Counted from the first letter of the stretch, positions 45,939-54,332 are shown. The stretch is DNA of 64,000 nt from Bryobacterales bacterium (GCA_963802915.1 CAWDKQ010000010.1:204457-268456), one strand, 5' to 3'. Translations and numbers: made by a program. Notes: generated from the sequence alone by a model not told the origin.

Positions 45939-48900
45939 TCAATCTCCTCCCGCGCCGGTGGAAGCTTCCGTGCGCTCCATCAATCGCGCCAGCCAGACGC
46001 GCATTACCGAAAAGAGATGATCCAAGTCCACCGGCTTGGTGACATAATCCGATGCGCCGGCCTGGAGGCATTTCTCGCGATCGCCTTTCATCGCTTTCGC
46101 CGTTAGGGCGATGATCGGCAAGGCCTCAAATTCCGGTATCTTACGGATCGCCCGCGTGGTTTCGTAGCCGTCCATCTCCGGCATCATGATATCCATCAGC
46201 ACAATATCGACATCGCGATTCTTTTGCAGGACCTCGATACCGCTGCGGCCGTTCTCCGCGTGCACCACTTCCAGATCGCGCTGTTCGAGCACACTGGTCA
46301 ACGCAAAAATATTGCGCAGATCGTCATCGATGACGAGCACTTTGCGGCCGGCTAGCATCGGGTCGATTTGACGAATGTCGGCCAACACGCGCCTTTGTTG
46401 GTCGTTGAGACTTACATCCGAACGATGTAGCAGCAACATGCTCTCGTCCAGAAGCCTCTCGAGTGAAGGCGCATAACGAACGGAGCTCATACGCGAGAGA
46501 CGGCGCAAATCGGCGGCTTGCTCCTGGCTCATCTTGCGGCTTCCGAAAACGATGACGGGCGGCACGAACGGCGAGAGGCGGTCCTGCATCTCTTCGATAA
46601 ACTCGGCACCCACCGTGTTGGACATGACCCAATCGAGGACAATGCCATCGAGATACTCGCTGGTGACCACCTGCATGGCTTCCTTGTCGGAGAGCGCATC
46701 GATAAACTCTATATCGGGCGCCCCGATGTATGCCTGGATCTCCTGTCGCAGGGGCTCCGTGCCGGTGACGAGCAGCATTTTTTTCGTTCGGGCTTCCATG
46801 GAGTGTTCGATGACGCCAAAGAATTCTTCCAGCGGCCCAGTGGCGCCTTTTTGAATGCAACTCATGGCGCCGAGCACGAATCCCCGGCGATTGTGTTCGT
46901 GTCCGGAGATCACATGAACAGGGATGTGGCGCGTCGCGGGATCGTGTTTGAGGTAATCGAGGACGGTCCAACCGCTCATATCCGGGAGACGAACGTCGAG
47001 CGTGATGGCTCCTGGTTTGAACTCGCGGGCGAGGCTCATTGCTGTGGTGCCGCGGAGGGCAATTAGGGCCTTGAGCCCATGTCGGTGGGCGGCTTCTACC
47101 ATGATTCGCGCGAAGGTGACGTCGTCTTCGACGACCAGAAGAATCCGATCTCCGGTCGCGATCAGATTGCGGTCATCATCGACGACCAGGTCATGATCGG
47201 CCAGCCAATTCGGAACCGGAAGGGTGCCGTGCTCGAAGCGATTATCGGCGTCGCGGGCCATCCAGACACGCATGACGGAGAAAAGATGGGCGAGATCGAC
47301 GGGTTTTGTTACGTAGTCGGATGCGCCGGCGCGGAGGCACTTTTCGCGGTCGCCCTTCATGGCTTTGGCCGTCAGAGCAATGATGGGGAGGGTTTCGAAT
47401 TCGGGACTGAGGCGGATGGCGCGCGTGGTTTCATATCCATCCATCTCGGGCATCATGATGTCCATGAGGACGATGTCGATGTCCTTGTTCGATTTGAGGA
47501 GCTCGATTCCGGCGCGGCCGTTTTCCGCGTGCAGCACCCTGAGATCGTGCTGCTCCAAGACGCTGGTGAGCGCGAAGATGTTGCGAAGATCGTCATCAAT
47601 GACCAGGACTTTGCGGCCCGCCAGCATCGGATCGGTCTCGCGAATCTCAGATAGGACTCGACGCTGCTCTTCGGATAGCGCGTATTCGTTGCGATGCAGA
47701 AGGAGCACTGTTTCATCGAGCAGGCGTTCAATATTGGGCGCGTATCGCACGGCGCTGGCACGCGCACAGCGATGGATCTCGCCGATTTGGTCTTCCGAGA
47801 GCTTGCGGCTGCCCGAGACCACAATCGGAGGCACATGCGGTGCAAGGTTCGCCTGCACGGCTTCGATGAAATCGAGGCCGGTGGCATCGGGAAGAACCCA
47901 ATCGAGCACGATGCCATCGAGATAACTGCGCCCGACAATTTCCAGACCGACGGCGGTGTTAGGAGCGTCGATAATTTCGAGGTCTTCGCCCGCCAGCAGA
48001 TTGTGGATGTCAGAAGTGCGAACGTCACTTTCGGCGATCAGTAAAAGCCGCTTCTTGCGCGGCTCCATGGAGTGCTGAATAATTCCGAACGCCTCTTCGA
48101 GCGATTCCTTCGTCAGCGCTTTCTGCAGACAGCTCATGGCGCCCAGCGCGAAGCCACGGCGGTTATTCTCGTGGCCGGAAACAACGTGGACGGGGATGTG
48201 GGCTACGAGCGGGTCGTGCTTCAGGCGGTCGAGCAGCGTCCAACCGCTCATGTCGGGAAGGCGGACGTCGAGGGTGATGGCGCTGGGACGATACTCGCGC
48301 GCGAGCGCCATGGCGGTGCTGCCACGGAGCGCGACCAGAGCTTTCAGACCGCGATCGTGCGAGAGATCCACCATGATGCGCGCGAACGTAACGTCGTCTT
48401 CGACGATCAGCAAGACACGATCGCCATGAGAGATCATGTTGCGATCATCATCGATGACCAGGTCTTCGACAGGCACCGATGTCGCGGAGGGCGGCAGGAT
48501 GAGATCGACTTCGGAACTAGTGTGAGTCTCGGCGGCCTTGCGGATAGCTGCCGTGTCGACCGATTCCTGCTTCGGCGCGGAAGAAATGTAGGCTTGCGGA
48601 AGATAGAGAGTGAATGTGCTGCCGCGGCCGAGTCCGCTCTGGAGTCGAATTTCGCCGCCGAGGAGTCGAGCTAGTTCGCGGCTGATGGAGAGGCCAAGTC
48701 CAGTGCCGCCGTACTTACGACTCGTAGTTCCGTCAGCTTGCTGGAAGGCTTCAAATATGATGCGCTGCTTTTCTTGCGCGATGCCGATACCGGTGTCCGT
48801 GACTGAAAATGCAACAATGCTCTTGGAACGGTTGAGCACGGGATGCGCGGCGCTCCAGCCTTTCGCAACACGCTCGATGCGCAGGCGGACGGAACCGTGT

Positions 48901-51900: not shown

Positions 51901-54332
51901 TCCGTTCCGACCTCGCGTGCTACGCGCGTCACTTCGGAAGCGAACGAGCTGAGCTGGTCGACCATCGTGTTGATGGTGTTCTTCAGCTCGAGAATCTCGC
52001 CGCGGACTTCGACCGTGATGGTGCGTGAGAGATCGCCCTTTGCGACGGCCGTCGTGACTTCGGCGATGTTGCGAACCTGGTTCGTCAGGTTGGACGCCAT
52101 GGAATTGACGGAATCCGTCAAGTCCTTCCACACGCCTCCGACGCCTTTTACAACGGCTTGTCCACCGAGCTTGCCTTCCGTTCCAACTTCGCGCGCCATG
52201 CGCGTCACTTCGGATGCGAAAGAGCTGAGCTGATCGACCATGGTGTTGATGGTGTTCTTCAACTCCAGAATTTCGCCTCGAACATCAACGGTGATCTTTC
52301 GCGAGAGATCGCCGTTGGCCACAGCCGTAGTCACTTCGGCGATGTTGCGAACCTGAGCGGTCAGATTGCCGGCCATCGAATTCACGGAGTCAGTCAGATC
52401 TTTCCAGACGCCGCCGACGCCTTTCACTTGCGCCTGTCCGCCGAGTTCGCCTTCCGTTCCGACTTCTCGGGCTACGCGCGTTACTTCCGATGCGAAGGCG
52501 TTGAGCTGATCGACCATGGTGTTGATGGTGTTTTTCAGCTCCAGGATTTCACCGCGTACGTCGACTGTGATTTTGCGCGAGAGGTCGCCGTTGGCTACGG
52601 CAGTGGTCACTTCGGCGATGTTGCGAACCTGGGCCGTCAGGTTGCCGGCCATGGAGTTTACGGAGTCGGTTAGATCTTTCCAGACGCCGCCGACGCCCTT
52701 CACTACGGCCTGACCGCCAAGCTTTCCTTCCGTTCCGACCTCGCGTGCAACGCGCGTCACTTCGGACGCGAAGGAGCTGAGCTGATCGACCATGGTGTTG
52801 ATGGTGTTCTTCAGCTCCAGAATTTCGCCGCGTACGTCGACGGTGATTTTGCGCGACAAATCGCCGAGCGCGACGGCCGTGGTGACTTCGGCGATGTTGC
52901 GGACTTGGGCTGTGAGATTGCCGCCCATGGAGTTGACCGAATCCGTGAGATCTTTCCAAACGCCGCCGACGCCCTTTACTACGGCCTGGCCGCCAAGCTT
53001 CCCTTCGGTGCCGACTTCGCGCGCGACGCGAGTGACTTCGGAAGCAAAGGAGCTGAGCTGGTCAACCATTGTGTTGATGGTGTCTTTCAGTTCGAGAATC
53101 TCGCCTTGCACATTGACCGTGATTTTGCGGGACAAATCGCCGCGAGCCACGGCGGTGGTTACTTCTGCGATGTTGCGGACCTGGGCGGTGAGATTGCCAG
53201 CCATCAGGTTGACTGAGTCGGTGAGATCTTTCCACGTGCCGGCGACCCCTCGAACTTCGGCCTGGCCTCCGAGCTTGCCTTCGGTTCCGACTTCGCGAGC
53301 AACACGAGTCACTTCGGACGCGAAGGAGCTGAGCTGATCAACCATGGTGTTGATGGTGTTCTTCAGCTCCAGGATTTCCCCCTGGACGTTGACGGTAATC
53401 TTGCGGGAGAGATCGCCGGTGGCAACCGCGGTGGTCACTTCGGCGATATTGCGCACCTGAGCGGTCAGGTTCGACGCCATGGAGTTCACGGAGTCCGTCA
53501 GATCTTTCCAGGTTCCGGCGACGCCGGTGACGACCGCTTGCCCGCCGAGCTTGCCTTCCGTCCCGACTTCGCGCGCCACGCGCGTCACTTCGGATGCGAA
53601 GGAGCTGAGCTGGTCGACCATGGTGTTGATGGTGTTCTTCAGCTCCAGAATTTCGCCTTGAACGTTGACCGTGATTTTGCGCGAGAGATCGCCCTTGGCG
53701 ACGGCGGTGGTGACCTCGGCGATGTTGCGAACCTGGTTGGTTAGGTTCGAAGCCATCGAGTTGACGGAGTCGGTTAGATCTTTCCAGGTTCCGGCGACAC
53801 CGGTGACCACGGCCTGGCCGCCGAGCTTTCCTTCCGTTCCGACTTCGCGTGCCACGCGCGTGACTTCCGAGGCGAAGGAATTGAGCTGGTCGACCATCGT
53901 GTTGACCACGCGAGCCGTGCGGACGAACTCGCCTTGAAGCGGGCGGCCTTCCACTTCGAGGGACATCTTTTGAGAGAGGTCGCCTTGCGCGACGGCGCCG
54001 ATGACGCGCGCGATTTCAGTGGAGGGTTGGACGAGATCCGAGATTAAGCTGTTTACCGACTCGACGCAGGAAGCCCAGCTTCCGGCGCCGGCCGCGAGGA
54101 ACGCACGTTGACCGATCTTGCCTTCCTTGCCGACCGCGGTACTGATGCGGGCCAGTTCGGTGGCCATATTCTCGTTCAGTTCAAAAATGTCGTTCAGTGT
54201 GTCGGCGACTTTGCCTGCCAAGCCAACTTGATTGACGGGTAACCGGACTGAGAAATCGCCTTTTTTGCAAGAGATGAGAGCTGCTAAAACTTCGTTGGCG
54301 TCTAGAACTTCCGTGACCGCGACCTTTTTCAC
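45939..54332 (-). CDS. Giant soluble hybrid histidine kinase (2,797 aa): poly-HAMP array, GAF, coiled coil, HisKA, HATPase_c and 2 x (REC-REC-REC)
   Basis: The GTG start at 54332 is preceded by GGAGGAGGAG. No TM segment is present. The unit [88 protein letters not shown] repeats 13 times nearly unchanged, with degenerate copies at both ends. A GAF domain follows ([14 protein letters not shown]). The H-box is [16 protein letters not shown] (His codon 49283-49281). The G-boxes are DTGIGI and [13 protein letters not shown]. Six receiver domains follow. Confidence 0.95.
45942..48464 (-). repeat. Tandem duplication of a triple-receiver module of about 1.26 kb inside the giant kinase
   Basis: Module 1 (47193-48464, starts [32 protein letters not shown]) and module 2 (45942-47192, starts [32 protein letters not shown]) are colinear over about 417-424 aa. 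Each contains three REC domains. Confidence 0.9.
50166..54030 (-). repeat. Perfectly phased in-frame tandem array of 276-bp units (92-aa double-HAMP unit)
   Basis: The Met codon of the VN(S/W/F/L)M landmark (plus-strand cat) occurs at 50442, 50718, 50994, 51270, 51546, 51822, 52098, 52374, 52650, 52926, 53202, 53478 and 53754. That is exactly 276 nt apart 12 times in a row with no indel. Degenerate units continue the phase at about 50166 and about 54030. Confidence 0.95.

Follow-up and report, generated by a model that had tools for sequence, protein, structure and literature searches.

A soluble AskA/AskB-type hybrid histidine kinase with 31 HAMP domains and its downstream partner gene in a Bryobacterales genome

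The 64,000-nucleotide (nt) stretch of Bryobacterales bacterium DNA analysed here at its full length (GCA_963802915.1, CAWDKQ010000010.1:204457-268456; hereafter the window) contains, on its minus strand, a gene for a soluble hybrid histidine kinase of 2,797 amino acids (aa), in which 31 HAMP domains stand in tandem ahead of GAF, kinase and receiver domains. We consider it highly probable that this protein, from Bryobacteraceae (Acidobacteriota), belongs to the published kinase-type poly-HAMP family and operates as a coupled-HAMP rod kinase together with a partner encoded directly downstream. The known family includes AskA and AskB from Myxococcus xanthus and the 'class III' hybrid histidine kinases. 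According to Coles et al. 2026 (PMC13446029), its members are built from a D1 HAMP, C-D2 di-HAMP repeats, a GAF domain, a DHp/CA kinase core and at least one receiver, usually with no upstream sensor; the same study counted 4,778 poly-HAMP kinases of this architecture in NR90, found kinase-type arrays also in fungi and Amoebozoa, and noted that AskA and fungal group III kinases are similar in domain organisation. A first-pass annotation of this DNA had described the gene as coding for a cytoplasmic poly-HAMP hybrid kinase without transmembrane (TM) segments and had taken its length to be far outside the described range. That observation is confirmed here with small corrections, and its interpretation is supported in part.

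Array layout and family identity

The gene and the parts of its array are located as follows.
45939..54332, minus strand: whole gene, AskA/AskB-type soluble hybrid histidine kinase; 2,797 aa, ~303 kDa, isoelectric point (pI) 5.2
54333..54360, minus strand: ribosome-binding site GGAGGAGGAG, 8 nt 5' of the GTG start
54168..54311, minus strand: HAMP1, a canonical HAMP of the D1 type that opens AskA-like arrays; aa 8-55; 58% identity to AskA HAMP1
53877..54167, minus strand: first di-HAMP unit, 97 aa; aa 56-152
50565..53876, minus strand: twelve near-invariant 92-aa di-HAMP units (units 2-13); aa 153-1256
50013..50564, minus strand: two diverged C-terminal di-HAMP units; aa 1257-1440

The open reading frame (ORF) starts with GTG behind a strong Shine-Dalgarno sequence, and the intergenic gap upstream of it measures 114 nt. 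HAMP1 is preceded by no more than 7 residues, too few for an N-terminal sensor domain. No TM segment was found in the 2,797-aa protein, the highest 19-residue Kyte-Doolittle mean being 1.73, inside the GAF beta-core. Pfam searches returned 14 stretches of HAMP (PF00672) alternating along the array with 15 stretches of HAMP_2 (PF18947); an NCBIfam search found no curated family at its cut-off, with matches to generic hybrid-kinase models only. HAMP1 was missed by Pfam and aligns with HAMP1 of the AskA crystal construct, and the 97-aa unit following it was detected with hidden Markov models (HMMs) made from both halves of the repeat unit. The whole array consists of D1 plus 15 pairs of a non-canonical and a canonical HAMP, that is, 31 HAMPs.

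The repeat period is exactly 92 aa over aa 153-1440, which holds 14 units, and Tandem Repeats Finder reported a period of 276 nt with 12.6 copies and 81% matches. Each of the twelve near-invariant units is formed by a non-canonical HAMP_2 followed by a canonical HAMP; pairwise identity among them is 84-98%, with a mean of 89% in protein versus 80% in DNA. The 13th and 14th full units are 71-77% and 61-65% identical to these twelve, respectively. Throughout units 2-15 the tryptophan of the G.W.DL motif and the glycines of EVG, LGGQA and GDL are invariant. The degenerate ends and the 92-aa units of the earlier description hold, with its "about 30" HAMPs becoming 31 and its 13 near-invariant units becoming 12.

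A Protein Data Bank (PDB) sequence search with the N-terminal 336 aa returned solely AskA constructs and Aer2. The two AskA entries, 9TRK (E 1e-131) and 9TRJ (E 4e-80), are a 6-HAMP and a 4-HAMP fragment of the M. xanthus protein (MXAN_0712) fused to GCN4. Residues 8-291 align with 9TRK with no gap at 74.6% identity, and HAMP4-6 are 87-93% identical. The specific features of the AskA start are also present: D1 comes first, the proline kink in the input helix of HAMP3 reads LVQPSTE here and LVQPTTE in AskA, the linker of HAMP3 carries the beta-hairpin insertion (in AskA, ALEVDGRPLRGEF), and the tryptophan and glycine junctions between HAMPs are shared. As in AskA, the array is followed by GAF, DHp/CA and receivers. 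The protein in this way displays the sequence-level traits of kinase-type poly-HAMP proteins, from a D1 start lacking sensor and TM segment, through C-D2 repeats, HAMP3 features and Trp/Gly junctions, to the GAF-DHp-CA-receiver order. AskA differs in having 21 HAMPs (D1 plus 10 modules) versus 31. The paper that introduced AskC puts its gene beside askB and describes no partner gene beside askA.

That paper (Marcos-Torres et al. Nat Commun 2020, PMC7643160) reported the genetics and biochemistry of AskA, AskB and AskC and compared them with Nik1. AskB (MXAN_6735) and AskC (MXAN_6734) resemble the system in the window in that a soluble poly-HAMP hybrid kinase with 31 HAMPs is followed directly by the gene of a receiver-bearing hybrid kinase. 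The window protein differs by its six receivers, where three are typical of the family, and by a partner with a single PAS domain; its host is an acidobacterium, with no evidence of fruiting-body development.

The first-pass annotation had also proposed a bacterial relative of the fungal osmosensor architecture. Published work supports the kinship: fungal group III kinases (Nik1, Os-1, TcsC, Hik1) are likewise soluble, are placed in the same class by the published classification (PMC13446029), and the HAMP pairs of CaNik1p measure 92 aa (PMC3848655); these kinases are the targets of fludioxonil and ambruticin signalling. What does not stand is the notion of an unprecedented device. The fungal proteins have 5-6 repeats (~9-12 HAMPs) versus 15 modules plus the N-terminal HAMP here, and their output feeds the eukaryotic Ypd1/HOG pathway. 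The published description of CaNik1p lists HisKA, HATPase_c and one REC and mentions no GAF, whereas the window protein has a GAF domain and six receivers; the layout of the eukaryotic proteins, in which 5-6 repeats lead into HisKA, HATPase_c and one REC, is not the one found here.

Likeness to Aer2 from Pseudomonas aeruginosa and to chemoreceptor-type arrays is limited to the alternation of canonical and non-canonical HAMPs and their tight junctions. The sequence match to Aer2 is weak (3VOL, E 8.7e-4), its five HAMPs are interrupted by a PAS domain, and the output of such proteins is methyl-accepting rather than a kinase. Pfam detected no MCP signal domain in the window protein, whose output is a histidine kinase. 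Chemoreceptor-type HAMPs (groups A/B, against C/D) were judged to be independent in origin (Coles et al. 2026, PMC13446029).

The first-pass annotation, which had called known poly-HAMP proteins short, read the protein as a rod without precedent, exceeding by far the length of all described poly-HAMP proteins. We find this reading hardly tenable. Thirty-one HAMPs do lie in the upper tail of the family, but AskB also has 31 (AskA, 21; Coles et al. 2026, PMC13446029) and still longer arrays exist elsewhere. A protein search gave at least 8,000 matches, and the best 120, all bacterial and where named mostly from metagenome-assembled genomes of Bryobacteraceae/Bryobacterales, were examined. These are 2,067-2,932 aa long, have the same Pfam set, and carry 19-36 HAMPs by unit-HMM count, D1 excluded; in 24 of them the array is longer than here, reaching 36 HAMPs besides D1. 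When species-representative genomes were scanned with the GAF-kinase module, at least 591 loci were detected in many phyla, including Acidobacteriota, Planctomycetota, Verrucomicrobiota, Cyanobacteria (Nostoc, Fischerella, Microcoleus), Massilia, Duganella and Myxococcota. The 48 complete genes of that scan have arrays of 5-33 HAMPs, with median and mode of 21, and four of them reach at least 31. Arrays of 25 or more HAMPs are, in short, commonplace and characterised, in a family described since 2010, with genetics published in 2020 and crystal structures in 2026.

Array length, age of the repeats and selection

A tandem repeat of 276 nt present in 12.6 copies is the type of sequence that short-read assemblers may mis-size, and the 90% cluster of this protein also has shorter members (665-1,586 aa). 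The length of the array could accordingly be put down to an assembly artefact, with repeats collapsed or inflated, a possibility so slight that we set it aside. On alignment, the short cluster members are collinear N- or C-terminal fragments. Units differ at 20% of their nucleotides, and in-register exact DNA matches between pairs of units reach 52 nt at most, so that reads can distinguish them. Furthermore, five full-length members of the cluster, from separate assemblies with contigs of up to 1.67 Mb, agree on 2,797-2,799 aa at 94-99.96% identity. In a relative separated by a proportion of synonymous differences (pS) of 0.5-0.7, units correspond one by one, with 97.7% identity on the diagonal versus 82.6% off it. 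The lengths of relatives also step by whole 92-aa units (2,521, 2,707-2,722, 2,797 and 2,883-2,932 aa). These changes in length by whole units chiefly affect the N-terminal side of the array.

Two papers interpret the resemblance among the middle HAMPs as amplification, which Winski 2024 calls recent. The repeats analysed here are old, which would qualify that reading. Among units 2-13 the synonymous divergence (dS) is ~1.05 and the ratio of nonsynonymous to synonymous divergence (dN/dS) is 0.074. Across 47 arrays from many phyla, the median identity between units was 0.88 in protein and the median pS 0.50, with a clearly recent pair of units in 2 arrays only. The consensus di-HAMP unit is 84-97% identical across phyla, and units 14-15 are closer to the last two units of arrays from other phyla (89-91%) than to any other unit of the window array. 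The middle units show a slight within-protein bias (0.94 vs 0.915), compatible with an old, partly lineage-specific amplification.

Selection along the protein was analysed by global alignment of the DNA with the ortholog locus L081:2501-10897, at a pS of 0.5-0.7 throughout. The ratio of nonsynonymous to synonymous differences (pN/pS) was distributed as follows.
Array columns invariant among units: 0.011
25 array columns differing among units: 0.050
Kinase core: 0.055
GAF and linker: 0.116
Receiver blocks: 0.24-0.26

In those 25 variable columns, identity is 93.7% between orthologous units and 59.9% between paralogous ones. With these identities, and with a pN/pS of 0.011-0.05, the array is under tighter constraint than any other region of the protein, and selection acts on the very differences between its units; unit-specific residues appear to be under purifying selection. 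The two receiver blocks are the fastest-evolving part.

A wider proposition, to which we give about even credence, is that the near-identical units are neither recent copies nor interchangeable, that selection has given every position in the rod an identity of its own, that array length is tuned, and that rod and partner form one two-protein device. If true, the identity of positions could consist, for example, of a graded stability profile or of position-specific docking sites.

Output domains, partner kinase and proposed signalling

The domains that follow the array, and the partner gene, are located as follows.
49524..49937, minus strand: GAF domain, aa 1466-1603, by Pfam (GAF_2) and fold model
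49311..49523, minus strand: long helix (signalling coiled coil) at the GAF-to-DHp joint, aa 1604-1674
48594..49310, minus strand: kinase core, HisKA/DHp (aa 1675-1742) and HATPase_c (aa 1791-1913), by Pfam
47274..48413, minus strand: receiver block A (REC1, REC2, REC3), by Pfam Response_reg
46005..47141, minus strand: receiver block B (REC4-REC6), tandem duplicate of block A
44360..45937, minus strand: partner gene, REC-PAS-HisKA-HATPase, 525 aa, H-box SHDLQEP; same predicted operon, in the position of askC

The order proposed in the first-pass annotation, in which GAF, a long coiled coil, HisKA/HATPase and six receivers follow the array, is borne out by Pfam and by a structural model of the GAF-helix segment. 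The model is confident, with a predicted local distance difference test (pLDDT) score of 88.8 for the whole segment, and comprises a generic small-molecule GAF fold and then one 88-residue helix, continuous over model residues 146-233 (protein aa 1586-1673). A fold search with the GAF domain retrieved the GAF domains of Lcd1 (cAMP), PtsP, fRMsr and phosphodiesterases (cAMP/cGMP), at 12-20% identity. This level permits no call among cAMP-, cGMP-, PtsP- and fRMsr-type GAFs, and the assignment of a ligand was rejected. The GAF-kinase module is 59-78% identical among Acidobacteriota, Cyanobacteria, Planctomycetota, Verrucomicrobiota, Betaproteobacteria and Myxococcota, which, like the 84-97% identity of the consensus di-HAMP unit among these groups, is unusually high for a signalling protein; strong constraint or horizontal transfer may be the cause.

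In the kinase core, the phospho-acceptor His1684 lies in the motif SHELRTP and none of the N, G1, F and G2 boxes is disrupted, so from its motifs the kinase looks catalytically competent. Receiver residues were judged against CheY. Equivalents of Asp57 are present in 6/6 receivers and equivalents of Lys109 in 4/6: REC1/4 and REC3/6 are canonical, with catalytic Asp, Thr/Ser and Lys kept, and REC2/5 are degenerate, with the acidic pocket gone and no Lys109 equivalent. To judge by these residues, REC2 and REC5 look like pseudo-receivers. Caulobacter ShkA is likewise a cytosolic hybrid kinase with a degenerate receiver between its core and a competent receiver; it lacks a HAMP array and its pseudo-receiver binds c-di-GMP, and its likeness to REC2/REC5 is one of analogy only. 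Blocks A and B are 68.6% identical over 404 aa. Three receivers are the family norm, being found in 43 of the 48 complete genes from the species-genome scan, while six occur in 57 of 121 close database proteins; the doubling of the three-receiver output block is specific to one lineage, a single acidobacterial clade.

The GTG start of the partner gene lies 1 nt past the TGA of the poly-HAMP gene, with an alternative in-frame ATG 9 nt further on, and a GGAGGAG sequence placed inside the 3' end of the poly-HAMP gene precedes it. A scan for promoters and terminators over window positions 43000-56500 gave counts not above those of shuffled sequence. In 51 of 74 related loci, across phyla, a REC-sensor-kinase gene lies downstream of the poly-HAMP gene and on its strand. 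All 52 partner proteins compared have an N-terminal REC and a HATPase_c, with the REC strongly conserved; the sensor domain varies (PAS in ~21, GAF in 13). In M. xanthus, askC lies directly downstream of askB, and the AskC receiver interacts with Rec3 of AskA (Marcos-Torres et al. 2020, PMC7643160). At L081 a stand-alone receiver gene (L081:12468-12938) comes after the partner; the window has none in this place.

The conservation of the partner bears on another explanation, according to which the array itself senses nothing and acts as a length-tuned modulator or spacer, the inputs being a GAF ligand and the partner REC-PAS kinase with its lineage-variable sensor. There is no input domain upstream of the array, the GAF domain has a ligand-type fold, and the partner is kept in the 51 loci with PAS or GAF sensors. 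Ambruticin, moreover, was bound by AskC and not by AskA or AskB (Marcos-Torres et al. 2020, PMC7643160), and the idea of a modulator tuned by array length has been raised by authors in the literature. This explanation is a serious one, which we nonetheless hold to be unlikely. The strongest purifying selection of the whole protein acts on the array, unit-differing residues included, and exceeds what a spacer needs. In fungal group III kinases, deletion of HAMP repeats alters or abolishes the response to osmotic stress and fungicides, so the fungal array does more than set spacing.

A role of the array mainly as a DNA-associated scaffold is improbable, in our estimation. This has been proposed for AskB at the mrpC promoter, and would require that weak helix-turn-helix (HTH)-like matches be real DNA-binding elements. 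Summed partial Pfam matches to SpoIIID (9.5e-16), HTH_6 (1.5e-10) and RHH_6 (7.4e-10) were obtained here, the same were reported for AskA and AskB, and AskB bound promoter DNA in vitro (Marcos-Torres et al. 2020, PMC7643160), through a mechanism not established in the literature. None of the HTH-like stretches is individually significant, however; their scores add up because the unit is repeated, and we rejected the HTH, SpoIIID and RHH matches as DNA-binding domains. The equivalent residues form HAMP four-helix bundles in the AskA crystals (Coles et al. 2026, PMC13446029), and the array is acidic, with a net charge of -27 and a pI of 5.06.

For the coupled-HAMP rod kinase that we favour, a mechanism can be proposed on the basis of the crystallised AskA fragments and the model in the literature. 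By its 74.6% identity to dimeric 9TRK, the protein would dimerise into one continuous four-helix rod, ~70-85 nm long as estimated from helix geometry. Adjacent HAMPs would prefer opposite helix-rotation states and in consequence be conformationally coupled and partly strained, so that a perturbation of the rod might shift the equilibrium; solute or osmotic stress, chemical modification and a bound partner are candidates. Binding of a ligand at the GAF domain could act on it in a similar way. The partner kinase is a further candidate input, and rod stress would be of the kind argued for fungal group III kinases. The shift would travel through GAF and signalling helix to the core, toggling it between kinase and phosphatase states, and phosphoryl groups would pass to the putatively competent receivers REC1/4 and REC3/6, with REC2/5 as presumed pseudo-receivers. 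The next node would likely be the conserved N-terminal receiver of the partner kinase, reached by phosphotransfer or by REC-REC docking, as between AskA Rec3 and the AskC receiver.

Several points weigh against this account. Dimerisation, rod length, kinase activity and phosphotransfer routes are carried over from AskA, and the comparison with AskB and AskC was made by published description, not by sequence. Likeness of the partner to AskC beyond the N-terminal REC appears generic, with PAS or GAF as sensor, and strict orthology to AskC is not established. In the immediate neighbourhood, neither an Hpt protein nor a cognate DNA-binding response regulator was found. Finally, for the family as a whole, authors in the field write that the role of signalling by poly-HAMP arrays 'remains unclear'.

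As a discovery the gene adds little, since the literature already contains the architecture, the extreme lengths, the link to the fungal fungicide target and an array crystal structure. Its comparative value, for the question of what poly-HAMP arrays sense and why their lengths vary, is modest. New, on a modest scale, are the duplication of the receiver block, the conservation of the partner gene across phyla, and the evidence that the repeats are old and individually constrained; these points could guide unit-deletion or unit-swap designs and partner phosphotransfer assays in the AskA/AskB system.

Neighbouring genes

The gene upstream of the kinase (window positions 54447-56135, minus strand) codes for a BlaR1/Peptidase_M56-like product and, in the section for its C-terminal part, includes short tandem repeats with periods of 21 nt and 42 nt (54528-54625 and 54832-54879). 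Nothing was found that ties this gene to the kinase, and the genes upstream at the ortholog locus L081 are different ones. On the other side, a 373-aa ORF at 43163-44284 (plus strand) is convergent with the kinase operon; it gave no Pfam or NCBIfam match, is rich in Thr, Ser and Asn with a hydrophobic N-terminus, and may be a secreted or surface protein. Beyond it, at 40123-42714 (minus strand), lies the gene of an 863-aa protein with Sortilin-Vps10 and BNR/Asp-box repeats and an FlgD-Ig-like C-terminal region, which appears unrelated.

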